In this document: positions 1 through 21,625 of the stretch, piece after piece
How positions within the stretch are numbered: position 1 is the first letter of the stretch
Layout of the letters: each line of letters starts with the position of its first letter
Virus record (IMG/VR): IMGVR_UViG_2645727608_000013
Source: a virus
Lineage: Duplodnaviria > Heunggongvirae > Uroviricota > Caudoviricetes
Length of the DNA stretch: 21,625 nucleotides
Direction: 5' to 3' (one strand)
The notes under the pieces: model-generated
Seen by the model: only the letters and a program-made list of their open reading frames with translations
Database searches by the model: none
Told to the model about the DNA's origin: nothing
Position numbers and translations under genes: made by a program

Positions 1-1164
1 TCACTCATCATCTTCTGTTTCGTACTCTACATCAGAAAGCCTGACCTCAAGCTCCAAGGACGTTGTGAAGCCGCTATTATTCAGAAAATGTGTCACCTTA
101 GTGATTGTCCAGTCCTGCTCGTCTATGACGCGCTTAAAGCCTGACACTTTAACCGGTGTTTCCGTGTAAATATCTGCCCGACCGGTAGCCAGGCTGATGG
201 AGAACTCCGCCACACCCCGTTGCAGTTTATCCCACTTCGCCTGAGCGGCGCGCATGGCCTGTGCTTTCGTGGCATATACCGTAGTCAGGGCAAAAACGTT
301 GTCAGCCTCACCGGCCATGTATTCACCTTCGCGCGCTTCCGGTACTTTTGGCGCTTTCTTCTGCGTGACCGGTTTTGCTTTCGGGTGCTCCAGTGCGCGC
401 AGGTGTTTTTCTTTCTTTTTGCGTTTCAGTTTTACCTTCTGCTTTTGCGGCTTCGGGTCTTTGGTGTGTAACCACTTTGCCGTTACGCCGGTATAGGCTC
501 CACGATCAGCAATCGCAAAATGATGACGGTCACCGTCGCTGCGGGTGATGGTAATCTGCGGGATTTTTTTACCGCTGGCAGTCACCCCCTGCCCCGCTTT
601 GAGAAACAGCAGTTTTCCCATTTTTACCGACACCTCACCGCCGTTGCGTTCAGCAAGACGGGTCAGGAATTTCGCATCAGACTCCTGCGACTGGTCGATG
701 TGCGGGATTTTAATTCCGGCCAGTGACGGAGCAACACGGGCTTCCAGCCTGTTACGGGAGGCTATCGCCTCAACAATCGCACCGAGCGTGGTGTCATGCC
801 AGGAGCCTTCCCGGCGGGAATTGAGCGTCCCGCGAAAATCTGCACTCCGGGCGCGGATGGTGACCACATCCGGCGCGCCCCGGTGTTCAACCTCATCAAC
901 GGTAAATTTCCCTTTGCATACCAGGGCAAAACCTTTCCAGCCGATATACACCGTCAGGACAGCGCCACGAACCGGCAGCCCGACCTGCCCGTCGGCATCG
1001 TTCAGTTCAATATCAAGCTGGTCAGCCTCAAAGCCCCGGTTATCCGTCAGGGTCATGCTCATCAGACGGTCGCTGATATTGCCGGTAATATCCCTGCTGT
1101 CGAGCATCAGCATGTAATCCGGCGTCAGCGTACTGCCTGCATCAAATGTCAGCGTATCCAGCAT
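1..1164 (-). CDS. D: Phage tail protein D (P2 gpD-like); complete, stop codon at window positions 1-3
   Basis: 387-aa ORF, same length as P2 gpD and recognisably the same sequence from memory; lies last in the FI-FII-E-T-U-D order; start ATG overlaps the U stop (ATGA). Confidence 0.9.
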   Translation of the reverse strand: MLDTLTFDAGSTLTPDYMLMLDSRDITGNISDRLMSMTLTDNRGFEADQLDIELNDADGQVGLPVRGAVLTVYIGWKGFALVCKGKFTVDEVEHRGAPDVVTIRARSADFRGTLNSRREGSWHDTTLGAIVEAIASRNRLEARVAPSLAGIKIPHIDQSQESDAKFLTRLAERNGGEVSVKMGKLLFLKAGQGVTASGKKIPQITITRSDGDRHHFAIADRGAYTGVTAKWLHTKDPKPQKQKVKLKRKKKEKHLRALEHPKAKPVTQKKAPKVPEAREGEYMAGEADNVFALTTVYATKAQAMRAAQAKWDKLQRGVAEFSISLATGRADIYTETPVKVSGFKRVIDEQDWTITKVTHFLNNSGFTTSLELEVRLSDVEYETEDDE

Positions 1165-6621: not shown

Positions 6622-7704
6622 TTGAAACCAGAGCAAATGAAAAACAGGGAAGAATTAACTAGCTTTGCAACGAAACTTGCTACTCAAATCAAGATGCAAA
6701 CCAGCAGCAATTTAAATGATCTTTCTACAGCCCAAGAGAGCTCGCTATTGCCTCTAATCAATCATGCCTGGGGAGAGCAGTTTGAGGATATGAATAGGAT
6801 ATCCCAAAACTACCCTGGTCTCGACTATGTGCAACCGGGAAAGCGCTTAGGTTTGCAAATGACTGCCACTGCAAGAAAGGTTAAGTATCAGAAAACATTA
6901 GACAAACTTCGAAATAATGAGAAGTTAAAGGGTAAGTTTGACGAGATTTGGTTTTTCGTCCTCACGGCTGAACGCCTACCTGATAACGTACGTGAACACC
7001 CTGACGATTTTCAGTGCAAATATTTCACATTGTACGACCTAGTCGAAAAGGTAATGGGACAGACTTTAGAATTTCAGCGTGATTTTTTGACCCTTGCCCG
7101 GAAAGAATACTCGGATTATTTCTCTCCTGGGGACGTTGCTTTCAATCAGGGGTATTGTGTATCAGAAAACAAGCCGATCCCCTTTGACTTGAGTCTTTTC
7201 AACGCGTTAATTCATACTAATGAATGGTTTGATGATGTTGACGAAGGTGAGCAGATCGTATATGAATTTCTAGAACTTTTTAAAAATAGACTGCGTCAAT
7301 GCACTTTATCTGCTAGAAATCTTTTAAGCAAAATTATCAGTGAGATAAATATACCGAAGAGTACAAGCACGAAAATCGAGTTTCCTGAAAAGCAACTTTT
7401 CGGGCCACTAATGATTGACGATACAAACTATCAATCTTTTTCAAAAGACCTTGATGATTTGTTCGAGATGAGTCTTATTGAACGATGGGACAATTATGTT
7501 GGAATGTACTATAAGGGTGATGATGCATATATCAAAAATGAACGTATGATCAGCGTGTCATTTCCAAAGATTGAACCCGAAATGAATCTGTATGCGGCGT
7601 TATATATCTTTTATGAAAAAAATCATGATATTGCAAAACTTGTGAACGCAATTGAAAATAGTGATTTTTCTCTGCTCGCTGACAGCACTTGCCAAAATAA
7701 TTAG
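6622..7704 (+). CDS. Uncharacterised 360-aa protein occupying the P2 Z/fun hotspot; candidate anti-phage defence or exclusion gene
   Basis: Only long ORF in the ~1.65 kb between FI and G; opposite strand to the flanking late genes; visibly AT-rich against a GC-rich backbone; probable TTG start at 6622 with GGAG 8 nt upstream (first ATG at 6637); acidic, no obvious transmembrane segment, no Walker A, no clear catalytic motif. Confidence 0.75.
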   Translation: MKPEQMKNREELTSFATKLATQIKMQTSSNLNDLSTAQESSLLPLINHAWGEQFEDMNRISQNYPGLDYVQPGKRLGLQMTATARKVKYQKTLDKLRNNEKLKGKFDEIWFFVLTAERLPDNVREHPDDFQCKYFTLYDLVEKVMGQTLEFQRDFLTLARKEYSDYFSPGDVAFNQGYCVSENKPIPFDLSLFNALIHTNEWFDDVDEGEQIVYEFLELFKNRLRQCTLSARNLLSKIISEINIPKSTSTKIEFPEKQLFGPLMIDDTNYQSFSKDLDDLFEMSLIERWDNYVGMYYKGDDAYIKNERMISVSFPKIEPEMNLYAALYIFYEKNHDIAKLVNAIENSDFSLLADSTCQNN

Positions 7705-8486: not shown

Positions 8487-10577
8487 TTACACCTGTGCGA
8501 CGTTATACCATGTGCCATTAATGTATTTTTGTATTGGTCTGAATACTGCCGGATCATCGCCATCAACTTCGCCGACAATGCCAAGCCCTGTAATTACATG
8601 GCCTGATTTCTCATACATCACGCCTTTTTGCATGGTCTGAACAACACGCGTACCCAGGCGAACATCTTTCACATAGCGGGAATCAAAATTTCCGTAATCT
8701 GATGGGTTAACACGTCCAGTAACACTCAGACCATGCCCCATTGACACTCCGCCATTAGCGTTATTGATAGTCAGCGGCCTTAAACCGTTCCATGACCCAA
8801 ATTTATCGCCAGAGGCCGTCAGCATTAAATATGTGCTGCCACCATCATTCCTGATAAAGAATCCATAATTGCCATAAGCAATGCGCAGACCATTAGCACT
8901 GAGTGATGTAATTTCACCTCTAGAACGAAGACCATAAGCGGAGCTGAGTGATAATTCTTCCTGAGCGTCATAGTTTCCTGTCGCCCAGCGAATTACCCCG
9001 CCCTGTACTGTTTCATGCCAGATAGTGTCTCCTTCTCCACCACGAAACTTTCTGAGATATTTTTTGCCGCCTCTGGTGCCTGAACATAAGGCCGTAGACA
9101 TATAGGCATTCTGGCTTCCGCCATCCTGATTAATCGTTCCGGTCATTGCGTCGCCCTGACGATTCCAGTCACGACGCCAGCCGGGGGAGTAGCCGTCCCC
9201 ATGATTAATGTAAGTGAATTGCGCGCTGGTTGTACCGCCACCACTTGATGTTGTCGGCGTGGTCACTCGGATAGTGATTGCAGATTTAGTTCCCATGACC
9301 TCGACGACACAACCAGCCAGGTGGATATCACCACATCCGGTATCCGTAATGATTTTGTTATTTGCATATGACCAGGAGCCTTTGCACATCCAGTACGGAT
9401 GATTAAATGCACCACGGGAATCCAGCCATTCAATAAACTGAGCGGTTGTCCAGTTTCCGGCTTCAGTGCTCAAAGCGCCGCTAAAAGCACGACAGGCACC
9501 GATATTTTTCGTGAAGGTATCCTTTCCCGGAATATCCGCACCGTTCTGATCTTTCTGAAGACGTTTTTCAGCATTGTCATAGGCAGACTTCACCGCTTTT
9601 GGTGTTGCAGCCAGCGTTTCAGAATCGCTGTTGGTGGCGCTACTGAGCTGGACAAGACCTTTTCGCGCTGTGGTGGCATCCTGTGCAGTGTATTTCCCGT
9701 TAGCAAGGTCATACACTGTCTTAACCGCCTTTGGCGTTGCCGCAAGCGTTTCAGAATCGCTGTTGGTGACGCTACTGAGCTGGACAAGGCATTTTCGCGC
9801 TGTGGTGGCGTCCTGTGCAGTGTATTTCCCGTTAGCAAGGTCATATGCTGCCTTAACCGCTTTTGGTGTTGCGGCGAGCATTTCAGACGTGCTGTTGGTG
9901 GCACTACTGAGCTGGACAAGCCCTTTTCGCGCTGTGGTGGCGTCCTGTGCGGTATATTTCCCGTTAGCAAGGTCATAGGCGGCCTTTACCGCTTTCGGCG
10001 TTGCGGCCAGTGTTTCAGACGTGCTGTTGGTCGCGCTGCTTAACTGAGTAAAACCTTTTGCGGTCAGCGAGGCGTCCGGGTGACGTCGTGACTGTTCGTG
10101 CTCTGCAATTTTGTCATCAACATAATCCTGCGTTGCCATCACCGTTGTGGTGTCAATGGTCAGCTCCACTGAGGCCACACTGCTGACGATGATGACCATA
10201 CGGCAGGTCTGCGAACGCCCTGAGCCTTCGGCAAGAGCTGGCTTATAACTTTCGGCCATGTTCGCCACGGCAATTAACGTTCCCGCATCATCGTACAGGC
10301 CAAGCTCACGCATCCAGAAACCGCCCACCTCCGGCGGAATAACCAGCTCTGCGATAATATAATTACTGTTTCGTTTGTCCTGGCTGATTTTGTTCAGCGC
10401 ATGTCGCCAGACTTCATGGATAAGCCCGGTCTGTCCGGCATCCGGGACAGGCAATTTACCCCCGCCATCCCCGACGGCCATCGTGGTAATGTTGACCTTC
10501 CGCCCTCCCGGTGCGGTTGCCGCTGCCAGCTTTGCTGCACCGGCAGTGGTGATAACGGTTCTGAATTTTGTGCTCAT
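8487..10577 (-). CDS. H: Tail fibre protein (P2 gpH-like N-terminus, divergent C-terminal receptor-binding region, four internal tandem repeats)
   Basis: 696-aa ORF; N-terminal ~170 aa matches P2 gpH as I remember it (MSTKFRTVITTAGAAKLAAATAPGG...); C-terminal half differs from my memory of P2 H (669 aa). Confidence 0.85.
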   Translation of the reverse strand: MSTKFRTVITTAGAAKLAAATAPGGRKVNITTMAVGDGGGKLPVPDAGQTGLIHEVWRHALNKISQDKRNSNYIIAELVIPPEVGGFWMRELGLYDDAGTLIAVANMAESYKPALAEGSGRSQTCRMVIIVSSVASVELTIDTTTVMATQDYVDDKIAEHEQSRRHPDASLTAKGFTQLSSATNSTSETLAATPKAVKAAYDLANGKYTAQDATTARKGLVQLSSATNSTSEMLAATPKAVKAAYDLANGKYTAQDATTARKCLVQLSSVTNSDSETLAATPKAVKTVYDLANGKYTAQDATTARKGLVQLSSATNSDSETLAATPKAVKSAYDNAEKRLQKDQNGADIPGKDTFTKNIGACRAFSGALSTEAGNWTTAQFIEWLDSRGAFNHPYWMCKGSWSYANNKIITDTGCGDIHLAGCVVEVMGTKSAITIRVTTPTTSSGGGTTSAQFTYINHGDGYSPGWRRDWNRQGDAMTGTINQDGGSQNAYMSTALCSGTRGGKKYLRKFRGGEGDTIWHETVQGGVIRWATGNYDAQEELSLSSAYGLRSRGEITSLSANGLRIAYGNYGFFIRNDGGSTYLMLTASGDKFGSWNGLRPLTINNANGGVSMGHGLSVTGRVNPSDYGNFDSRYVKDVRLGTRVVQTMQKGVMYEKSGHVITGLGIVGEVDGDDPAVFRPIQKYINGTWYNVAQV
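9578..10060. repeat. Four tandem ~120-bp (40-aa) in-frame repeats inside tail fibre gene H
   Basis: Near-identical units visible in the nucleotide sequence, encoding repeats of ...QLSSATNS(T/D)SE(T/M)LAATPKAVKAAYDLANGKYTAQDATTARK...; the six-frame track shows repeated peptides in both strands over 9590..9978. Confidence 0.85.
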
Positions 10578-13069: not shown

Positions 13070-13522
13070 CTAACGGTCGAGGTGAGCCAGGATAATCTCT
13101 TCAATCATCTGCACATCCTCACCGGTAAAGCCGAGCAGAGGACGCGCCGGATAATCAATTTTCTTACCGTCTTTCCGGGTTTCTTCCGACAGACCGAACT
13201 GATGCACACTGGCTATTTTCGGTGACTTCCCGCCGTAAAACTCCATTGATGCCTGTTCAGGGCTGGCGCGGATATGCAAAAAACGACTGGTGATAAGTTT
13301 CGCAAACATTTTTCGTTTAACGCGACCGGTCTTTTTTCTGGCGCTCTGCTGCTGGCGTGGTGCGTAGGGTGTGCCGTCCGGGGCTTTCTGTGCCATCACC
13401 CGGCGCTGCTGACTCTGCCACAGACGTTTCGCCAGTTCGGTACTCAGTCGCCGACGCCCTGACGGTGACAGCGATTCAATCAGTCCGGTCAGCCGGTCTT
13501 CAAAACGCTTAAACTCATTCAT
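13070..13522 (-). CDS. S: Tail completion protein S (P2 gpS-like)
   Basis: 150-aa ORF matching P2 gpS in length; downstream of R. Confidence 0.85.
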   Translation of the reverse strand: MNEFKRFEDRLTGLIESLSPSGRRRLSTELAKRLWQSQQRRVMAQKAPDGTPYAPRQQQSARKKTGRVKRKMFAKLITSRFLHIRASPEQASMEFYGGKSPKIASVHQFGLSEETRKDGKKIDYPARPLLGFTGEDVQMIEEIILAHLDR

Positions 13523-13982
13523 CCCACTCGCTCACCAGTTCGCCATTGATATAAAGCTCCACCGGGCGGGTGACCGGCTCCGGCGGCGGGGGTTCCGGGA
13601 TATTCTTCACATGCAGCGCACCGTCAACCTCGCTGACCAGCGTGCGCTCGGTCAGCATCAGACTGATGCTGATATCAAAGCTGCTGTCATTGTTGATGTC
13701 TGCATAAAACGTGAAGCCCTTTTTCTGACCTTCGTCAGTGGTCATGATGTCGGGCTGATTTTCCCGCAGCCACGCCAGCACCGGCACGATGAGCAGGTCA
13801 AAATCACCGGTAAAGTCGGTCACAATCACATTGAGCGTGTAACGCTTTTCGAACGACAGCGACGTCGCCAGCGTGGAGGCAATACTCCCGTTATCCACGA
13901 ATATCCGAAGCATCTCTGGACTGGTTTTCAGCACCGTGACGGCATCAGTCAGCGCCCTGCGCAGGCTGTCGGGTTTGAGCAT
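13515..13982 (-). CDS. R: Tail completion protein R (P2 gpR-like)
   Basis: 155-aa ORF matching P2 gpR in length. Confidence 0.85.
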   Translation of the reverse strand: MLKPDSLRRALTDAVTVLKTSPEMLRIFVDNGSIASTLATSLSFEKRYTLNVIVTDFTGDFDLLIVPVLAWLRENQPDIMTTDEGQKKGFTFYADINNDSSFDISISLMLTERTLVSEVDGALHVKNIPEPPPPEPVTRPVELYINGELVSEWDE

Positions 13983-14235
13983 CGTTTTCGTCCTGACAGT
14001 GTTTAATCATTTTTACCTGGCTGGCACAGCGCGCCAGCGCGTTCTCAAGCTGCCGGATATCGGCACTTAAATCACCGTTCGTCTCCGGGTCGCTGCCCGG
14101 CATCGGGCAAAGACTCACTTTCGGGCAGGCGTTGTGGACAATCACTGGCGTCGGTGCAGGCGGGGCGCTGGTGCAACCGGCGCACAGCATCAGGCAGGTC
14201 AGCGCCGTACCAGCGGCGAAAATCTTCGTTTTCAT
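13945..14235 (-). CDS. lysC: Outer-membrane lipoprotein spanin LysC (Rz1-like), in the +1 frame, starting inside lysB
   Basis: Internal ATG at 14233..14235 begins MKTKIFAAGTALTCLMLCAGC..., a lipoprotein signal with lipobox cysteine, giving 96 aa, the length of P2 LysC; the 135-aa track ORF is an upstream in-frame extension. Confidence 0.75.
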   Translation of the reverse strand: MKTKIFAAGTALTCLMLCAGCTSAPPAPTPVIVHNACPKVSLCPMPGSDPETNGDLSADIRQLENALARCASQVKMIKHCQDENDAQTRQPAQGAD

Positions 14236-14515
14236 TAAGTAACCTCGTGATGGTTTTCTCGCGCTGTGCTTCACGCTTCGCGGCTTTCTCCAGTTCCTGA
14301 CGCAGAGCCACCTGCGCCAGCTCGTTTTTGTCTGCCCTGGTGAGCGCAACATGAAGCTGATTTTTCAGCATGGTGATGGTCGTCTGCTGTTCACTGGCGA
14401 CACTGTTCGCCCTGTCCAGCGAGGCGCGCAGGCTGGCATTTTTATGTTTCACCAGAAACAGACCGGCCACCGCCAGTGATAACAACACAACCAGCACAGT
14501 CATCAGCCTTGACAT
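14072..14515 (-). CDS. lysB: Inner-membrane spanin LysB (Rz-like)
   Basis: 147-aa ORF with an N-terminal transmembrane segment (MSRLMTVLVVLLSLAVAGLFLV) and a charged coiled-coil-like region; sits between lysA and R as in P2. Confidence 0.8.
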   Translation of the reverse strand: MSRLMTVLVVLLSLAVAGLFLVKHKNASLRASLDRANSVASEQQTTITMLKNQLHVALTRADKNELAQVALRQELEKAAKREAQREKTITRLLNENEDFRRWYGADLPDAVRRLHQRPACTDASDCPQRLPESESLPDAGQRPGDER

Positions 14516-14928
14516 GGTTCCCGCCCCTCAAAACGCTGACAGCAGGCCGTACGTATCAGCCGGAAGAACACCGATGCCACAAGATAAATCAGCGCGGTAA
14601 AAATCCACCCGGCAGCGACCAGCGAGATAAACGTCGCCACCACCACTACCAGAGCCACTGCCCGTCTGCGCCACGGCACCGGCTGCAAAAACAGCGACGT
14701 GACAATCTTCATGGCCAGCGATTCCGGCGGCAGCTCCCGCCCGTAGCGTTCCAGTACATACTCCGTGGCATACACGCCGACACCACCGGCAACCACACAG
14801 ATAACCGTCGCCAGAATCGCCCAGGCGGCGACAAAACTGACGGCCACGCTCTGCGGGTAAATCAGGGACAGTGCCAGCATCATCGCCAGCGACACGTTCA
14901 GCATCAGTGAAAGGGATAATTTCTTCAT
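14503..14928 (-). CDS. lysA: Lysis timing membrane protein LysA (P2 lysA-like)
   Basis: 141-aa ORF with multiple hydrophobic segments, same length as P2 LysA; downstream of endolysin K. Confidence 0.8.
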   Translation of the reverse strand: MKKLSLSLMLNVSLAMMLALSLIYPQSVAVSFVAAWAILATVICVVAGGVGVYATEYVLERYGRELPPESLAMKIVTSLFLQPVPWRRRAVALVVVVATFISLVAAGWIFTALIYLVASVFFRLIRTACCQRFEGREPCQG

Positions 14929-14942
14929 GGTGTTTACTCCGT

Positions 14943-15440
14943 TTAAGCCGGTACGCCGCCGGCGGTACGCCAGACGGTGACCAGTTTTTCCAGTGGATGC
15001 TCACGCTGACCGTAACCGGCTCCCGGCAGGGACGCCCAGATATTGCGACAGCGTGAAATGGCGCGCTCAATGCGTCCCTCCCGGATGTCATCCAGTGCAC
15101 CGCGTTCGCGGATCAACTGAATGGCAAGTCTGTCCTGTGACAACGGACTGAAATCCGGCAGGGCAAGCTGTTTGCGGTAGTGCGGCCAGAACAGGTAAAG
15201 CTGCTGATAGCGACCGGAAGCCGTGGATTTTTCACCGCGACGGTTAAACACCTTCGCCGGTCGGCCATGCGCGAACGGGTGGTCACTGTAGTCGGTGAAT
15301 ATTTCCGGCTTTCCGTCCAGTCCGGTGACTATCACGTCATAGCCCCGGTTTTTCGTCAGCGGGTGATTCGCCGTCCCTTCGGACACGGCCAGCATGTCGA
15401 GAAAGGCGGCGATATTCTGATGCGTGTTAATTACCGGCAT
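14943..15440 (-). CDS. K: Endolysin (P2 gpK-like lysozyme)
   Basis: 165-aa ORF matching P2 gpK in length; start overlaps the Y stop by 1 nt. Confidence 0.85.
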   Translation of the reverse strand: MPVINTHQNIAAFLDMLAVSEGTANHPLTKNRGYDVIVTGLDGKPEIFTDYSDHPFAHGRPAKVFNRRGEKSTASGRYQQLYLFWPHYRKQLALPDFSPLSQDRLAIQLIRERGALDDIREGRIERAISRCRNIWASLPGAGYGQREHPLEKLVTVWRTAGGVPA

Positions 15441-15721
15441 TACGGTTTCCCCCTGCCCTTAAAGCGGCGCTGAATGGCAATCTCAATCACCTGATAACCG
15501 GCGATACCCAGCATGGAGCCGATGCCGCACACCGCAGGCAGTGACAGGTCAGGAAACTGCACCAGAACAACACCGGCAACCATCGAGACAAAACCACCGA
15601 GCAACATGCGCCCGATAAACAGACGCGGGGTGATGGGTTCACCACCGGCAAGCACCTTGCCGACAACAATCAGCACCCCAATCATGAAAAGCGACAGGAC
15701 GCTTTTTTCTTCTGCTGTCAT
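15440..15721 (-). CDS. Y: Holin (P2 gpY-like)
   Basis: 93-aa ORF with hydrophobic segments and a basic C-terminus (RRFKGRGKP), same length as P2 gpY. Confidence 0.85.
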   Translation of the reverse strand: MTAEEKSVLSLFMIGVLIVVGKVLAGGEPITPRLFIGRMLLGGFVSMVAGVVLVQFPDLSLPAVCGIGSMLGIAGYQVIEIAIQRRFKGRGKP

Positions 15722-15724
15722 GCG

Positions 15725-15928
15725 TTACTCCCACAGATTGACAGTTTCAGCCACGGGCGCGGTCTGAACGTCGGGCAGTTCGACGGCGGTGCCGTGTGGC
15801 AGCACCGCACCCAGTTCAGCCAGTCCCGGATTTGCGGCGAGCACGGTCTCAACCACGCCCTCAGTGCGCCCGTAATACCGGACACAAATGGCGTCGAGCG
15901 TGTCGCCCTGTAGCGCAAAGGTCTTCAT
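15725..15928 (-). CDS. X: Tail protein X (P2 gpX-like, LysM-like)
   Basis: Internal ATG at 15926..15928 gives a 67-aa product MKTFALQGDTLDAICVRYYGRTEG..., the size of P2 gpX; this ATG overlaps the L stop (ATGA). The 90-aa track ORF is an upstream extension. Confidence 0.8.
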   Translation of the reverse strand: MKTFALQGDTLDAICVRYYGRTEGVVETVLAANPGLAELGAVLPHGTAVELPDVQTAPVAETVNLWE

Positions 15929-16437
15929 CAGATTTGACTCACGATGCAGCGCGGCTTGTCCTGGATGCGCGCCACTGCCCAGCGCATATCCCGCCACAGC
16001 TCATCAATGGTGCTGTCAATGCTGTCGGCCTTCTTGTCGCCTTTCGCACTGGCATCCACGCCGCGGTAACGCTCATAAAGCGACGCGGTCGCCATCGCAC
16101 ACACGGCGCGCTCGTAGTAAAAAACTTTGATGCTTTCACCGTCGATGTCGTCCGCCGGGACGTCCGCCAGACGCGTAAAACCGGCGGCAATTTTCTGTTC
16201 GCGGTACTCGTACAGCTCCGCATTTGTTTCCGCCATGCCTGACTTGATGGCCTCACGCAGACGGGCGGGGGCGACGGTCTGCTCAAGGCGCATACGTTCC
16301 CGGACGCGCTTCGGGTCGATATCGGGAAAAAAGAACGTGTTTTTAATCACCGGCTCGTCGCCTGCCGGTTGCGGGATGACCACCGTACCCTCACCGGACA
16401 CGGGAGCCTCCTTTCGCGGAATAATCAGCGTCATCAT
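15928..16437 (-). CDS. L: Head completion protein L (P2 gpL-like)
   Basis: Start at the ATGATG at 16432..16437 gives 169 aa (MMTLIIPRKEAPVSGEG...), the size of P2 gpL, with GAGG 8 nt upstream; the 189-aa track ORF is an upstream extension. Confidence 0.8.
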   Translation of the reverse strand: MMTLIIPRKEAPVSGEGTVVIPQPAGDEPVIKNTFFFPDIDPKRVRERMRLEQTVAPARLREAIKSGMAETNAELYEYREQKIAAGFTRLADVPADDIDGESIKVFYYERAVCAMATASLYERYRGVDASAKGDKKADSIDSTIDELWRDMRWAVARIQDKPRCIVSQI

Positions 16438-16536
16438 GACTACCTCTGAAAAGTCGGGCGGTGGACGCCGGTGCAGTGTCAGGTGATTCACCCTCACTGA
16501 CCGGCGTGCCGCCCTGGCGCGGGGCGCATTCGGTTG

Positions 16537-17280
16537 TTAACTGGCTTTCTTTTTCGGGCGTCCACGTTTTGCCGGTGTCACGCTCCGTGTCTTACGCGGG
16601 GCGCGGGTGACCGCTTTGGGCTGCGGCTCCGGCTTCGGTTTCAGCTCCCGCTCCAGTCGTTCAATCTCTTTTTTGACGCCTGCCTGACAGTCGAGCTGTG
16701 TCGCACGTTGCAGGTGCGCCAGCGCACCGGCGGCATCACCAGCGTCACGCAGAAACAGACCGGTGATTTTGTGCAGCTTTGCGCGCACTTCATCAGGCAT
16801 GTCAGCCGTGGCGGTCAGTTCGAGGGTCTCCGTCAGCAGGCGGGTATCCACAGACTCACCGGCAGCGTGAGCACGCATGGCCGCGAGCGCCACCTCCTCG
16901 GTGAACATGTACGGCGGGGTGCGGCGGTGTTTACCCGGCATGGTCAGACCGTACTTCAGGGCGTAACGGGCAATCTCCAGCGCACCGGCAATATCGCCGG
17001 TATCCAGACGCCACAGCATGACCGTCATCAGAATGTCATCCTGTGCGCCTTTGCCCTGCTCCAGCACGCCGTTCACCCACGGCAACCAGAACGGCAGCAG
17101 TTCGCGCTTTTTCGCGGCCTTCAGCTCTTTTGAATAAATCGTTTTCAGTGTGCGCTGGTCTGCGGCGAGCTTAACCAGCATCTGCTCATAGACAGTTGCA
17201 TGTCGCAGCGGGGCGGCTTCCCGCTGCGCGGTCATCGCTGCCGAGACCCGCATCATGTGGCGCTGTGCGGGACTCGTCAT
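16537..17280 (-). CDS. M: Terminase small (endonuclease) subunit M (P2 gpM-like)
   Basis: 247-aa ORF matching P2 gpM in length, with a basic C-terminal tail; downstream of N. Confidence 0.85.
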   Translation of the reverse strand: MTSPAQRHMMRVSAAMTAQREAAPLRHATVYEQMLVKLAADQRTLKTIYSKELKAAKKRELLPFWLPWVNGVLEQGKGAQDDILMTVMLWRLDTGDIAGALEIARYALKYGLTMPGKHRRTPPYMFTEEVALAAMRAHAAGESVDTRLLTETLELTATADMPDEVRAKLHKITGLFLRDAGDAAGALAHLQRATQLDCQAGVKKEIERLERELKPKPEPQPKAVTRAPRKTRSVTPAKRGRPKKKAS

Positions 17281-17283
17281 CGG

Positions 17284-18357
17284 TTACGCTCCCGGCTCTG
17301 CGGTCGCTTTAGCCGGTGTGGAGAAGTCACCGACCTTGATTTTTTCCACCAGACAACCGGCGGCGTAGTCTTCCACCACGTAATCAATGTTCATTGACTC
17401 GTAGTTCTCCACGCGGTCGAGTTTCGGGTTTTCCACAATCACGCGGCGATGGCTGTCATCCATGTAGTAGATGGACAGGTTTTTCAGCTTCGTGATGAGC
17501 ATCGCATCCGCCGGGAAGTACGGGACGCGTACCGCCGGCAGGTTACCGATGCGTTTCTGGCTGATGATGACGTCAGCGGCCAGCATTTCGCTGTTGTCCT
17601 GCTCCTTGTTGACGATGGGGAAATACTTGTCCGCCAGTAGCTGACGCCCCACAATCACCACAAGGTCAGGGTCTTCCTGATACCACGGTTCAATCAGGTT
17701 GTTGGTCGCATCCATCACCAGTGCATCGAGGCTGGCATAATCACCGCCCTTGCCCACGCGGATAACCTCAGAGGTGGTGCGGCCTTCCTCGTCAGTGACC
17801 TTGCTCATCACGCGCGCCGGGGCTTCATTGCGGTATTTCTGCAGCCAGCCGACCGCCACATCCTGCAGCATCGGATTGCTGCTGCGGTCAGAGGTTTCGG
17901 CACGCTTCACGCCGTTAAAACCGGCCATGATGAAATCAAGGGACTGGCGTTTGATAATGGCGTTACGGACACGGAGCTGGAAATCCTGATAACGCGCCCA
18001 CAGGTCCAGCGTTTTGTAGCGGATATAAAAATCGAAGTTAATCTGGTCGCATTCGTACTTGTTAGACGCCAGCTTCGAGAAGTCCTTCGGCTGACGCTCG
18101 GTGCCACCGGCGGTGTCGGTGGTGCTGGCGATGGAGCCGGTGACACCGATGCCAATTTTTTCCCCTTTCATTTCGCTGACCGGCACAATATTGATGCGGG
18201 TCAGAAAGTCAGAGGACTCCTGCATGGTGTTCATCAGGGTCTGGGTGACCGACGGTTCAACGGTGAATTTTTTCGACACATCACCGGCGTCGATGCCGTT
18301 CAGTTCGGCAACACGGGACAGGTAGGCATTAAATTTAAAGCGGGTTTCCTGGCGCAT
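17284..18357 (-). CDS. N: Major capsid protein N (P2 gpN-like)
   Basis: 357-aa ORF matching P2 gpN in length; between O and M. Confidence 0.9.
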   Translation of the reverse strand: MRQETRFKFNAYLSRVAELNGIDAGDVSKKFTVEPSVTQTLMNTMQESSDFLTRINIVPVSEMKGEKIGIGVTGSIASTTDTAGGTERQPKDFSKLASNKYECDQINFDFYIRYKTLDLWARYQDFQLRVRNAIIKRQSLDFIMAGFNGVKRAETSDRSSNPMLQDVAVGWLQKYRNEAPARVMSKVTDEEGRTTSEVIRVGKGGDYASLDALVMDATNNLIEPWYQEDPDLVVIVGRQLLADKYFPIVNKEQDNSEMLAADVIISQKRIGNLPAVRVPYFPADAMLITKLKNLSIYYMDDSHRRVIVENPKLDRVENYESMNIDYVVEDYAAGCLVEKIKVGDFSTPAKATAEPGA

Positions 18358-18415: not shown

Positions 18416-19237
18416 TCAGCAGTTCGTCATCAGGGCATCACCGCCACCGCCGGTGGCCTTGCTGCGGCGCTGCTGGGTCAGACTTTCGGTGCTGTCGAGA
18501 CTGTTTTTCAGGCGGGTGAATGCCTGGCTGGTTTCATCCGCCCTGTCAGTCACATCCTGCTTAAGTGCGGAAAAAGCGGTTTCCATCTCAGCGAGGCGCT
18601 GCTCAGTGGCACTCAGTTTTTCCTGCACATGTTCAGCAACAGCGGTCACCGCTTCATGCACATCATTCAGACGGGCGTCATCGCTGGCCTGTTTGCGGCT
18701 AAAAATGGATTTCACCTTTTCGGTCAGGGCGGTGAACACGGTTTCAGGCAGGTCTTCAAATTCCAGCTCAACAGGCGTTGCCACTGAAATCAGGTTTTCA
18801 GGGCTTAATTTGAAGCGGTTCAGGGGGTTGTGTTTTGCCGTGCGGCAGAATTCCAGGTATTCCGTGCCGAGGCTTGCCGGGTCATCGGTGACGGCCAGCC
18901 CCACCAGATAACATTTGCCGGTGTTGGCAAAGTTCGGCTGAATTTCCATTGAGGTGTAGACCTTCTGCGCGGCCTTGTTCATCGCGATAAGGTCATCGGT
19001 CGGGGTGATTTTCGCAAACAGCGCCCATTTGCCTTTCAGCGCCGAATCATCGTCAATCTTTTCGGCCTTCAGTTCGACCACATCGCCATAACGCTTAAAA
19101 ATACCGTCAGGCAGGATGCCGCGCAGATGTTCCAGGTTAATGCGGCAACCATAGACTCGCGGGTCAAAGGTTTCGGCCATTTCCTGAATATCCTGCGCAC
19201 TGATGACACGCCCGTCACAGGTGTCACCCTCAACGCC
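18416..19237 (-). pseudogene. O: Capsid scaffold gene O, 5'-truncated by IS insertion (about the first 10 codons of P2 gpO missing on this side)
   Basis: The frame stays open upstream of the track's internal start (19180) and encodes AGVEGDTCDGRVISAQDIQEMAETFDP..., matching residues ~11 onward of P2 gpO (284 aa) as I remember them; similarity stops near 19237/19238 where the IS terminal repeats begin; in-frame TAA at 19244..19246. Confidence 0.7.
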
Positions 19238-19246
19238 TGCGTATTA

Positions 19247-19322
19247 CCGTGAAGGAGATCGGTGAGTAACATCGATGGAGATCGGTTCGTGTCACTTTCA
19301 CAGAACCGTTTTTAAATTACCT
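19247..19322. repeat. IS21-family terminal repeat region (multiple short direct and inverted repeats, probable IstA binding sites)
   Basis: GGAGATCGGT at 19254..19263 and 19276..19285; the inverted copy GATCTCCTTCGG at 19309..19320; the minus-strand IS terminus ends ...ACGCA at 19238. Confidence 0.5.
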
Positions 19323-20072
19323 TCACTGATCTCCTTCGGTCAACGGAGATTGTATTTTCCGCATTGATTCTCCTTTAAGTTCGATCTTGATACTGCCATG
19401 AACCAGTCGATCTAGGATGGCATCCGCATGTGTGGAGTCTCCGATCATTTTGTACCAGTTTTCCACCGGCAACTGGCTCACTACGATGATTGAGCCTCGT
19501 TGGTACATCAGATCCACTATTTCCAGCAGGTCGCTACGCTGTTCTGATGAGAGAGGTTCCAGCCCCCAGTCATCCAGAAGCAGCAGATCGCTATTATTCA
19601 GCCTGGTCAAAAGTTTGCTGTATCTTCCATCAGCATGCCCCTGATAGCACTGTTCCATCAGCGCTTTAAGGCGATAATAGTAGACCTTGTATCCCTGTCG
19701 GCAGGCATTATGACCAAGTGCACATGCCAGGAACGTTTTACCGCTGCCGGTGGCCCCGGTCAGTAAAATATTTTGTTTCAGGGTTAACCAGTTTCCCTGA
19801 CTGAGTGAACGGATGAGGGCCCTGTCCAGCCCTCTATTGTTACGATAATCCAGCTTTGATAACTCAGCATTAAGTCTGAACCGTGCATGTTTGATCAGAC
19901 GCTCTGCCTTCCTGTTTTCACGGCAGGTTAGTTCTTCTGCTGTCAGTAATGACAGGCGTTCTTCGAAGCCCAGCTCCTGGTATGTGCCCGGTTGAGCAAG
20001 TTGCTTTTTAAGCGCATCACGGAAGCCGGTGAGTTTAAGTGCGGTCAGTTGTTCGTAAAGATGATTCATCAT
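19323..20072 (-). CDS. istB: IS21-family transposition helper ATPase IstB
   Basis: 249-aa ORF with Walker A (GATGSGKT) and Walker B (LLLLDDWG) motifs; directly downstream of istA. Confidence 0.9.
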   Translation of the reverse strand: MMNHLYEQLTALKLTGFRDALKKQLAQPGTYQELGFEERLSLLTAEELTCRENRKAERLIKHARFRLNAELSKLDYRNNRGLDRALIRSLSQGNWLTLKQNILLTGATGSGKTFLACALGHNACRQGYKVYYYRLKALMEQCYQGHADGRYSKLLTRLNNSDLLLLDDWGLEPLSSEQRSDLLEIVDLMYQRGSIIVVSQLPVENWYKMIGDSTHADAILDRLVHGSIKIELKGESMRKIQSPLTEGDQ

Positions 20073-20083
20073 TGGATCCCGTA

Positions 20084-21625
20084 TCAGTGGTAATACTCAC
20101 TGCCGCGTACGTTTTCGTGTTCCATCGTGGATAACAGATCTGGTTTTGGATCCTGAACAGGTTGTTTATCCAGACCTTTTTCCAGGATCGATTTAATACC
20201 TGACAGACGCCATACCTTTGTTTTCAGAGCTCTTGCACATGCTGCATTAAGTCTGGCTTTACTGTATTTTTTATGAAGGTTCAGGAGTCCAAGGCAGAAG
20301 CGATAGCTTTGTTCCGGATGTGGACGAGAGTTCAGTATATGAAGCACATAACTATGAGTTTCACTGCCTATGTGCCCCGCCCATTCCAGAAGACGCTCTG
20401 GCGTCCAGGTGGCATGCTGTCGATGAGCTTCAGGCATGTGCTCGTTGCGGGTACTGTAGCCATAAGTACGCTTGCGCGGGTGCACAGCAACCTCCTGCCC
20501 CTGATTGAAGAGTCTTACCAGTTCTCCGGAGATCCATGCTTCCAGTTGCTGGCCTAACAGCGAACATGGAACCGAGTAGTAATGTTTGTCGATTTCCACG
20601 TGGTAATCGGCATGAACTCTGACTTTCTTCACCAGGGTGTAACTGTAACTGGCTTCAGGAAGAGGCTTCAGTGCGGGTTTATCAAGCTGGATGAAGAGTT
20701 CTGCACGTGAATAACCCAACTTCTGCATTATTTTGTTATTCAGTCTTTCCAGCAACTCCCGAATGCGCTGATTAAGCGATGCAAGGCTGTAGAAGATCTC
20801 ATGCCTGATTCGGGCCATGATCCAGCGTTCAACAACCTGAACGCCAACTTCAGCTTTGGCTTTATCTTTCGGTTTACGTGGCCGCGCAGGCAAAACTGCG
20901 ACATTATAATGCTCAAGCATCTGCTGGTAGGTAGGGTTAACGTCAGGATCATACTTACATGCCCTGGATGTGGCGCTTTTCAGATTGTCCGGAACAACAA
21001 GTTCAGGAACGCCACCCAACCACTGGAAGCAGCGAACATGACTCATCACCCAGTCTTCAAGCTGCTGAGACCAGGTGGCCTCTGCCCATGTGTAACTTGA
21101 TGCCCCGAGAACAGCTACGATGACCTGAGCAGTTCTTATTTCTCCGGTCTCAGGGTCGGTAACGCCAACGGTAGGTCCACAGTAATCAACGAAAAGTTTT
21201 TCGCCAGCTTTATGTACCTGACGCATTGATGGTGAAGTGGTTTTGAGCCATTCACGGTACATCCGGCAGTAATGGTTATAGCTGTAAAAACCGCCTGGAT
21301 TACGCTCACAGTATTCTTCCCAGAGTAGCTGCAGCGTCACGCATTTATTACGCAGTTCCCGGTGTACTGTAGCCCAGTCAGGCAGAGAGTGCTTCTTCAT
21401 CTTAACCTGGGTCTGAAGGAACGCATGTTTTAGTTTTGTATCATCCCATCCTGTAGGTAAGGGCCACTGCTTTATGCCAAGTTGAGCCGCCCGATTAGCA
21501 TATCTGGATACAACGGAAGGGGAGATTGCAAGACTACGACCAATTTGTCGATGGCTGAGTCCAACACCGTATTTAAGCCTAAGAATTTCTTTAAGTTTTC
21601 TCATAGAAATTGGAACTGTTGGCAT
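20084..21625 (-). CDS. istA: IS21-family transposase IstA (N-terminal HTH, DDE catalytic core)
   Basis: 513-aa ORF whose start ATG is at the window edge (21623..21625); N-terminal helix-turn-helix-like region followed by a large integrase-like core; paired with istB. Confidence 0.85.
   Translation of the reverse strand: MPTVPISMRKLKEILRLKYGVGLSHRQIGRSLAISPSVVSRYANRAAQLGIKQWPLPTGWDDTKLKHAFLQTQVKMKKHSLPDWATVHRELRNKCVTLQLLWEEYCERNPGGFYSYNHYCRMYREWLKTTSPSMRQVHKAGEKLFVDYCGPTVGVTDPETGEIRTAQVIVAVLGASSYTWAEATWSQQLEDWVMSHVRCFQWLGGVPELVVPDNLKSATSRACKYDPDVNPTYQQMLEHYNVAVLPARPRKPKDKAKAEVGVQVVERWIMARIRHEIFYSLASLNQRIRELLERLNNKIMQKLGYSRAELFIQLDKPALKPLPEASYSYTLVKKVRVHADYHVEIDKHYYSVPCSLLGQQLEAWISGELVRLFNQGQEVAVHPRKRTYGYSTRNEHMPEAHRQHATWTPERLLEWAGHIGSETHSYVLHILNSRPHPEQSYRFCLGLLNLHKKYSKARLNAACARALKTKVWRLSGIKSILEKGLDKQPVQDPKPDLLSTMEHENVRGSEYYH

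Follow-up and report, generated by a model that had tools for sequence, protein, structure and literature searches.

We report that a P2-like prophage occupying the window (the whole stretch of DNA analyzed here, 21,625 nucleotides) very likely received a 2581-bp ISEc12 element by transposition into the 5' end of its scaffold gene O, in the same orientation as the gene, giving a prophage O::ISEc12 that is predicted to be defective for particle production.

Results

A P2-like late region with a single lesion

A tblastn search of the window with P2 proteins shows it to be a P2-like prophage late region encoded on the minus strand. D, U, T, E, FII, FI, G, I, J, W and V are present over 100% of their length with 91-100% identity, and so are S, R, lysC, lysB, lysA, K, Y, X, L, M and N; gpO is the sole incomplete late protein in the window. 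The initial annotation had described the other late ORFs as intact, and D through N are indeed full length by tblastn. The main prophage features are as follows.

4-1164, minus strand: gene D (tblastn against P2)
13073..18357, minus strand: rest of the O operon, comprising N, M, L, X, Y, K, lysA, lysB, lysC, R and S, all full length with 94-100% identity (tblastn)
17287-18357, minus strand: gene N (tblastn against P2)
18416..19237, minus strand: truncated P2-type scaffold/protease gene O, codons 12-284 plus stop (tblastn and PF05929)

The region departs from P2 at three points: the tail fibre gene H is a mosaic, no gene fills the orf30 slot between S and V, and the Z/fun slot is taken by another gene.

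Over the 19 kb of prophage we found just one lesion. The initial annotation had interpreted the prophage as domesticated, with the Z/fun cargo kept as a host-beneficial gene. Domestication would be recognized by multiple inactivating lesions or lost lytic modules, together with selective gene retention, and, because there is a single lesion in 19 kb, that pattern is absent: one recent IS lesion in an otherwise intact late region lends the proposal no support, and nothing in the sequence backs a benefit of the cargo to the host. With a single lesion, decay is at its earliest possible stage, which is the reverse of long-term domestication.

Gene O ends at the exact base where the insertion sequence begins

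Residues 12-284 of gpO align to 19237..18419 on the minus strand with 98.5% identity, while residues 1-11 are absent (tblastn). The product belongs to the GPO family of capsid scaffolding proteins and serine peptidases by its match to Pfam PF05929 (Phage_GPO, E=1e-105, from profile position 7 onward), its 98.5% identity and its conserved place upstream of N-M-L; its protease domain (residues 1-141) is incomplete and has lost its own start codon. The gene is thus split, as had been proposed, with codons 1-11 absent from the part on the window side.

Similarity to P2 gpO had been said to end near 19237/19238, and both tblastn and the alignment of ISEc12 copies place the break there to the base. 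The sequence common to the window and seven ISEc12 copies starts at TGCGTATTACC, which is position 19238 of the window, and opens TGCGTATTACCGTGAAGGAGATCGG. These seven copies lie in unrelated contexts (antirestriction/TA islands, yecD-aspS, the pap island, a lambdoid prophage and others), which also include gene V of another P2-like prophage. The insertion point falls between nucleotides 38 and 39 of O, counting the duplicated GGCGT, and the orientation of the IS is that of O. The following features surround the junction.

19233..19237, no strand: target-site copy ACGCC on the plus strand (GGCGT, O nucleotides 34-38, P2 3200-3204), with the same 5 bp at both IS ends in E. coli EC45
19244..19246, minus strand: TAA stop in the IS end, in the O frame and three codons upstream of Gly12, in the translation ...RSPSR*YAGVEGDTCDGR...
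18416..19180, minus strand: longest ORF left in the O frame, 254 aa from gpO Met31 (MAETFDP...; ORF list and translation)

An IS-O fusion protein is ruled out by the in-frame TAA at 19244..19246. The first usable start in the truncated gene is Met31, and the scaffolding domain proper of gpO (residues 195-284) is retained.

The inserted element is ISEc12 with intact istA and istB

The initial annotation had recognized an IS21-family element in O, with istB followed by istA. This is correct, and both genes are intact.

19238..19322, no strand: right terminal inverted repeat region of ISEc12, outer end TG (alignment of copies and repeats)
19323-20072, minus strand: istB, AAA+ helper ATPase, intact (PF01695, E=2e-67; NF038214, 270 bits against a cut-off of 200)
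20084-21625, minus strand: istA, DDE transposase, 513 aa, intact (rve, PF00665; Mu-transpos_C_2, PF22483; NF033546, 310 bits against a cut-off of 160)

The two cut-offs are those of the NCBIfam equivalogs for the IS21 transposase (NF033546) and the IS21 helper ATPase (NF038214). istA and istB lie on the same strand with 11 bp between them, the two-gene arrangement of IS21; RefSeq places the start of istB at 20069. IstA is the same as that of the EcPF18 copy (RefSeq WP_001298859.1), and neither IstA nor IstB has an amino-acid change relative to the common allele. The window ends at the ATG of istA, leaving the remaining 193 bp of the IS left end outside it; the full IS length of 2581 bp uses a left-end length taken from two other copies (loci L013 and L001). 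The 2388 bp of the IS inside the window have 0 mismatches to six copies (loci L003, L005-L007, L020, L021). Judged by its sequence, the element is ISEc12, of the IS21 family, which is common in E. coli: copies 100% identical over 19238-21625 are labeled 'IS21-like element ISEc12 family' in RefSeq, and it is these labeled copies, not the ISfinder reference sequence, that give the identity.

The ends of IS21-family elements are terminal inverted repeats (TIRs) built of multiple repeats, R1/R2 and L1/L2 (PMC10122671). Repeated motifs typical of such a terminus had been suspected next to the junction, and two exact GGAGATCGGT cores are found in 19238..19322, at 19254-19263 and 19277-19286, 23 bp apart; these are the only two exact matches, and an inverted copy with one mismatch lies at 19325-19334 (about 0.9 matches with at most one mismatch are expected in the whole window). 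The cores sit in two 29-nt direct repeats with 23-bp spacing, and related copies occur at the IS left end. We assign the right-end repeats to the R1/R2 type, as putative transposase binding repeats. TG...CA ends and multiple direct repeats are both present, the right end being read in the window and the left end in EC45, where the IS ends are TGCGTATTACCGTGAA and TTCATGAAAATACGCA, with a 53-nt extended inverted repeat and repeated GGAGATC units at the left end. The stretch 19238-19322, which was checked as possible native P2 sequence, is therefore the IS terminus. Among 13 ISEc12 copies read at both ends, the target-site duplication measures 5-8 bp and mostly 5, and a 5-bp duplication has been reported for ISEc12 (PMC10711316).

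The far side of the insertion is visible in E. coli EC45

One of 5426 complete genomes, that of E. coli EC45 (NZ_CP059125.1), carries the identical 120-bp junction. There the IS is inserted at the same nucleotide and in the same orientation, with the 5-bp duplication ACGCC at both of its ends. Beyond the IS come O codons 1-13 (MAKKVSKFFRIG...), the pO/pP intergenic region, and then P and Q on the opposite strand. From the start codon of P to the insertion point, 211 of 211 positions are identical to P2 2994-3204, a stretch that spans O nucleotides 1-38, the activator binding site and both transcription start sites, and the IS sits between O and this pO/pP control region, which is the same as in P2. 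The other IS end, the target duplication and the rest of O, which the initial annotation had proposed to look for, are thus all found in this relative. Its expectation that 5' O together with P and Q would be found past the IS holds in EC45, but the missing 5' part is not large, amounting to only 11 codons. RefSeq annotates the EC45 allele as a pseudogene (H0X93_RS00060, 'GPO family capsid scaffolding protein, incomplete; missing N-terminus').

The O-N-M DNA of EC45 differs from the window at 57/3237 positions (1.8%), up to within 80 bp of the junction, and the two IS copies differ at 2 positions. Because of these differences in flanks and IS, the two probably reflect separate insertion events at an identical position. 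The left IS end, the second duplication copy, 5' O, P and Q of the window genome are presumably arranged as in EC45, and a simple insertion would read ...AAAATACGCA-ACGCC-GATACGAAAGAATTTTGAGAC..., followed by pO/pP and P.

A much less probable account is that the IS in the window genome marks the endpoint of a rearrangement, a deletion or inversion between ISEc12 copies that left 5' O, P and Q elsewhere or lost. The window and the near-identical draft contig JHQZ01000013.1 (GCA_001265235.1; 2/13210 positions differ) both end in or at the IS, the latter exactly at its outer end, with the left flank unseen, and E. coli genomes with ISEc12 contain about 2 matching places as a median and 17 at most, which would serve as recombination substrates. 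However, in EC45 the insertion at precisely this site is clean and flanked by a 5-bp duplication, and contig breaks at a multicopy IS are normal behavior of short-read assemblers and no sign of rearrangement. Simple transposition into O remains the preferred reading.

Predicted consequences for O, its operon and phage production

The P2 record shows P-Q and O-N-M-L-X-Y-K-lysA-lysB-R-S as divergent late operons with one common activator site, so the 'P-O operon' that the initial annotation considered interrupted does not exist. The predicted effect of the IS is larger than it had stated: the insertion would part the whole O operon, lysis genes included, from its Ogr-dependent promoter pO. The O-operon genes at 13073..18357 lie downstream of the IS instead of pO, and transcription from pO would have to cross 2.6 kb of IS before reaching the truncated O (O'), N, M, L, X, the holin/endolysin genes, R and S. 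The genes for the capsid protein, small terminase, head completion, holin, endolysin, spanins and two tail completion proteins would all be moved 2.6 kb farther from pO.

At the protein level, any translated O product would be missing residues 1-30 of the N-terminal protease domain (1-141). Residues 1-141 of gpO form the maturation protease and residues 195-284 the scaffold, protease activity is lost in an S107A mutant, and neither P2 nor P4 can form viable particles without gpO (PMC7552001). Since gpO is essential to both, the prophage should give no plaque-forming phage, and it is almost certainly unable to make infectious particles; the capsid-assembly defect proposed earlier therefore holds as a prediction from sequence. 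The catalytic triad of gpO, which we take to be Asp19-His48-Ser107, was not used as evidence.

The effect on the genes downstream of O may be milder. A simple scan found no strong terminator on the minus strand between istB and O', and a simple scan for promoters detected none pointing outward from the IS right end into O'. A -35 box has been described for the IS21 right TIR (PMC10122671), and the promoter scan found no -10 in the O flank to pair with it. Since istA and istB run in the direction of O and the scan detected no strong terminator, some read-through to the downstream genes is possible. We infer that expression of O is certainly blocked, whereas for the remaining operon genes the block is uncertain and polarity may be incomplete.

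Such read-through is also what would be needed for the insertion to be harmless, a reading that we consider improbable, in which transcription from pO or from an IS promoter, together with O translated from Met31 or supplied by a second prophage, still yields particles. The co-orientation of istA/istB with O and the failure of the scan to find a strong minus-strand terminator would allow it, the truncated O keeps the C-terminal scaffolding domain (195-284), and several P2-like prophages are often present in one E. coli strain, which makes complementation of O in trans possible. However, residues 1-30 of gpO are part of the conserved protease domain, which covers residues 1-141 (PMC7552001); the Pfam profile starts at about residue 6. 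The AGGA directly 5' of the Met31 ATG, as read from the sequence, is too near for a good ribosome binding site, and even with complementation in trans the prophage genome would be 2.6 kb above its normal length. Excess length matters for a cos phage with a headful limit. A particle-defective O::ISEc12 prophage thus remains by far the better explanation.

The insertion appears young and is found in many assemblies

The sequence supports a young insertion, because the IS has no private mutation, the IS genes are intact, D to N are full length and the duplication is intact in EC45. The initial annotation had likewise considered the insertion probably recent, and the absence of private IS mutations and the full-length D to N agree with it. 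Gene callers report precisely this 254-aa truncated O product on at least 20 contigs, which come from isolate and run assemblies and from a metagenome, and the junction was present in 6/6 places inspected (two NCBI draft assemblies, three Logan run assemblies and one ENA metagenome). We infer that the insertion is evolutionarily recent yet fixed in a circulating E. coli clone. That the junction is a chimeric assembly artefact, as might be thought of a multicopy IS in which the window happens to end, is extremely improbable, as the same junction is found in the complete EC45 genome and in all six independently sourced places inspected.

Recurrent ISEc12 insertions around the 5' end of O

Further ISEc12 insertions in P2-like prophages, with their target-site duplications, were read at the following places.

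O, 16 bp further into the gene: strain 4114, duplication ACAGG
Promoter region just upstream of P, about 175 bp from the window site: strain 98207, duplication GCCTT
O, at about codon 80: OkiPb01716, duplication CAAACAGC
N: isolate 30224_1#273 (NZ_OZ039827.1), duplication CTCAT
P: strain 1436, duplication AGGTGG
P/Q junction: strain 98201, duplication ATGAG

Strains 1435, 1437 and 1438 show the same match pattern as 1436, and five more genomes have the same 5309-bp match span as 98201. The orientation of ISEc12 is the same in all four of the window lineage, EC45, 4114 and 98207, and no insertion in the opposite orientation was found within about 560 bp of the window flank. From these sequences, ISEc12 appears to have made three independent insertions within the first 55 nt of O, two of them at one and the same base, and a further one in the neighboring promoter region.

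IS21 elements show no strong sequence specificity and their insertions cluster near promoters, while IstB selects bendable or kink-prone DNA (PMC10122671, PMC11208146). The insertions grouped at the 5' end of O are consistent with this reported IS21 preference for sites next to promoters. We tentatively suggest that the first ~55 nt of O and the pO/pP control region may form a structure-determined ISEc12 hotspot, a reading that we hold with less than even confidence and regard as a lead, not a result, the sample being small and the queries having favored the O 5' region and one orientation.

A scan of contigs for the IS right end returned one match only, a 546-bp E. albertii contig, so that no target-site logo was possible. 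The flank motif GTCACCCT[C/G]AAC, common to the window flank and the flanks of some other ISEc12 copies, was set aside as evidence of a sequence motif because the hits had been ranked by that very similarity. Many whole-window matches that included istA, namely those in APEC O1, 2406_w1 and ATCC 11775 among them, were rejected as O insertions, as O is intact in them and the IS lies elsewhere or is non-adjacent.

Discussion

The element, the gene and the type of event are all already known, and O::ISEc12 is already a RefSeq pseudogene in EC45. The EC45 insertion resembles that of the window in position, orientation and the 5-bp target sequence and differs from it in its O-N-M flank and its IS. 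The closest parallel outside the phage is tssM::ISEc12 of ST131 clade C, where the same element, with a reported 5-bp duplication like that of EC45, splits a gene in two with the loss of a multi-protein machine (PMC10711316); in that case the target is a chromosomal type VI secretion gene, whereas in the window it is a prophage head gene near a late promoter. The O operon of P2 itself has the same gene order as the window (O-N-M-L-X-Y-K-lysA-lysB-lysC-R-S), with gpO 98.5% identical over residues 12-284; unlike in the window, codons 1-11 are not split off by a 2581-bp IS, nor is the gene cut from pO.

The insertion also shares several features with the transposition model derived from IS21 and IS5376, in which an IstA tetramer acts with IstB decamers: an istA-istB operon, TIRs made of repeated sites, a 5-bp duplication as read in EC45 and a reported preference for sites near promoters or in bendable DNA (PMC10122671, PMC11208146). 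The IstA of ISEc12 has 513 aa, compared with ~400 aa for the IS21-family IstA of structural work. We know of no biochemistry on ISEc12 itself.

Taken together, our findings lead us to annotate the window as a P2-like prophage with O::ISEc12. This prophage is probably unable to form capsids or to serve as a helper for P4, and the gene in its Z/fun slot would then be passed on vertically and not spread by this phage. The repeated insertions at the same few bases provide a small natural data point on target choice in the IS21 family. If the hotspot is real, it would constitute evidence from natural populations for the promoter-adjacent, kink-prone target selection proposed for IstB, and ISEc12 would recurrently disable head morphogenesis in P2-like prophages.

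A possible hotspot of ISEc12 insertion at the 5' end of O

The insertion that splits the scaffold gene O of the window has a counterpart in the complete genome of E. coli EC45 (L001, 9934-12524), where ISEc12 occupies the identical nucleotide (target copy at window 19233-19237) in the identical orientation. The two lineages differ by 1.8% in the prophage DNA adjoining ISEc12 and by 2 SNPs within the element itself. In the P2-like prophage of strain 4114 (L009), ISEc12 is inserted 16 bp from the site shared by the window and EC45, and in that of strain 98207 (L002) it lies inside the pP/pO promoter region. Taken together, the insertions in the window lineage, EC45, 4114 and 98207 look like a local ISEc12 hotspot.

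For the interrupted O of strain 4114 (L009, 6444-7271), RefSeq lists an intact "GPO family" protein of 275 aa, with a start codon that falls within the terminal repeat of ISEc12. The intact call is an annotation artefact that masks the disruption of O.

Strains 98207 and 98201 (L019) come from a single study in Alexandria, Egypt. The proteins M, N, O, P and Q of their prophages have identical accessions and their ISEc12 copies share one SNP (20224 C), but the element lies between O and P in 98207 and at the P/Q junction in 98201, reflecting either local movement or repeated insertion.

Cargo gene and other departures from P2

Features of the window:
6622-7704, + strand (opposite strand), 360-aa ORF in the G-FI interval (Z/fun slot)
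8487-10577, - strand, tail fibre gene H, mosaic relative to P2
13003-13073, empty orf30 slot in the S-V interval

The Z/fun-slot ORF begins with a SMEK domain at its N-terminus (NF033859, E=2e-24; PF21941), and its PADLOC match to Aga_REase-PNTD1-PNTD2 covers the N-terminus only; all assignments are confined to the N-terminal part, with none over the C-terminal 240 aa. The S-V interval measures ~70 bp, whereas P2 encodes the 786-bp orf30 there. H aligns with its P2 counterpart only over residues 1-251 and the final 80, and contains a ~44-aa unit in four tandem copies (...TAQDATTARKGLVQLSSATNS.SE.LAATPKAVKAAYDLANGKY).

ISEc12 elsewhere in P2-like prophages

In ATCC 11775, the E. coli type strain (L012, 3493-8296), the P2-like prophage carries as cargo an old-like AAA ATPase gene that ISEc12 interrupts, and in strains S14 (L005, 916-4481) and E19 the element interrupts the 3' end of the baseplate gene V. 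ISEc12 seems to land often in P2-like prophages.
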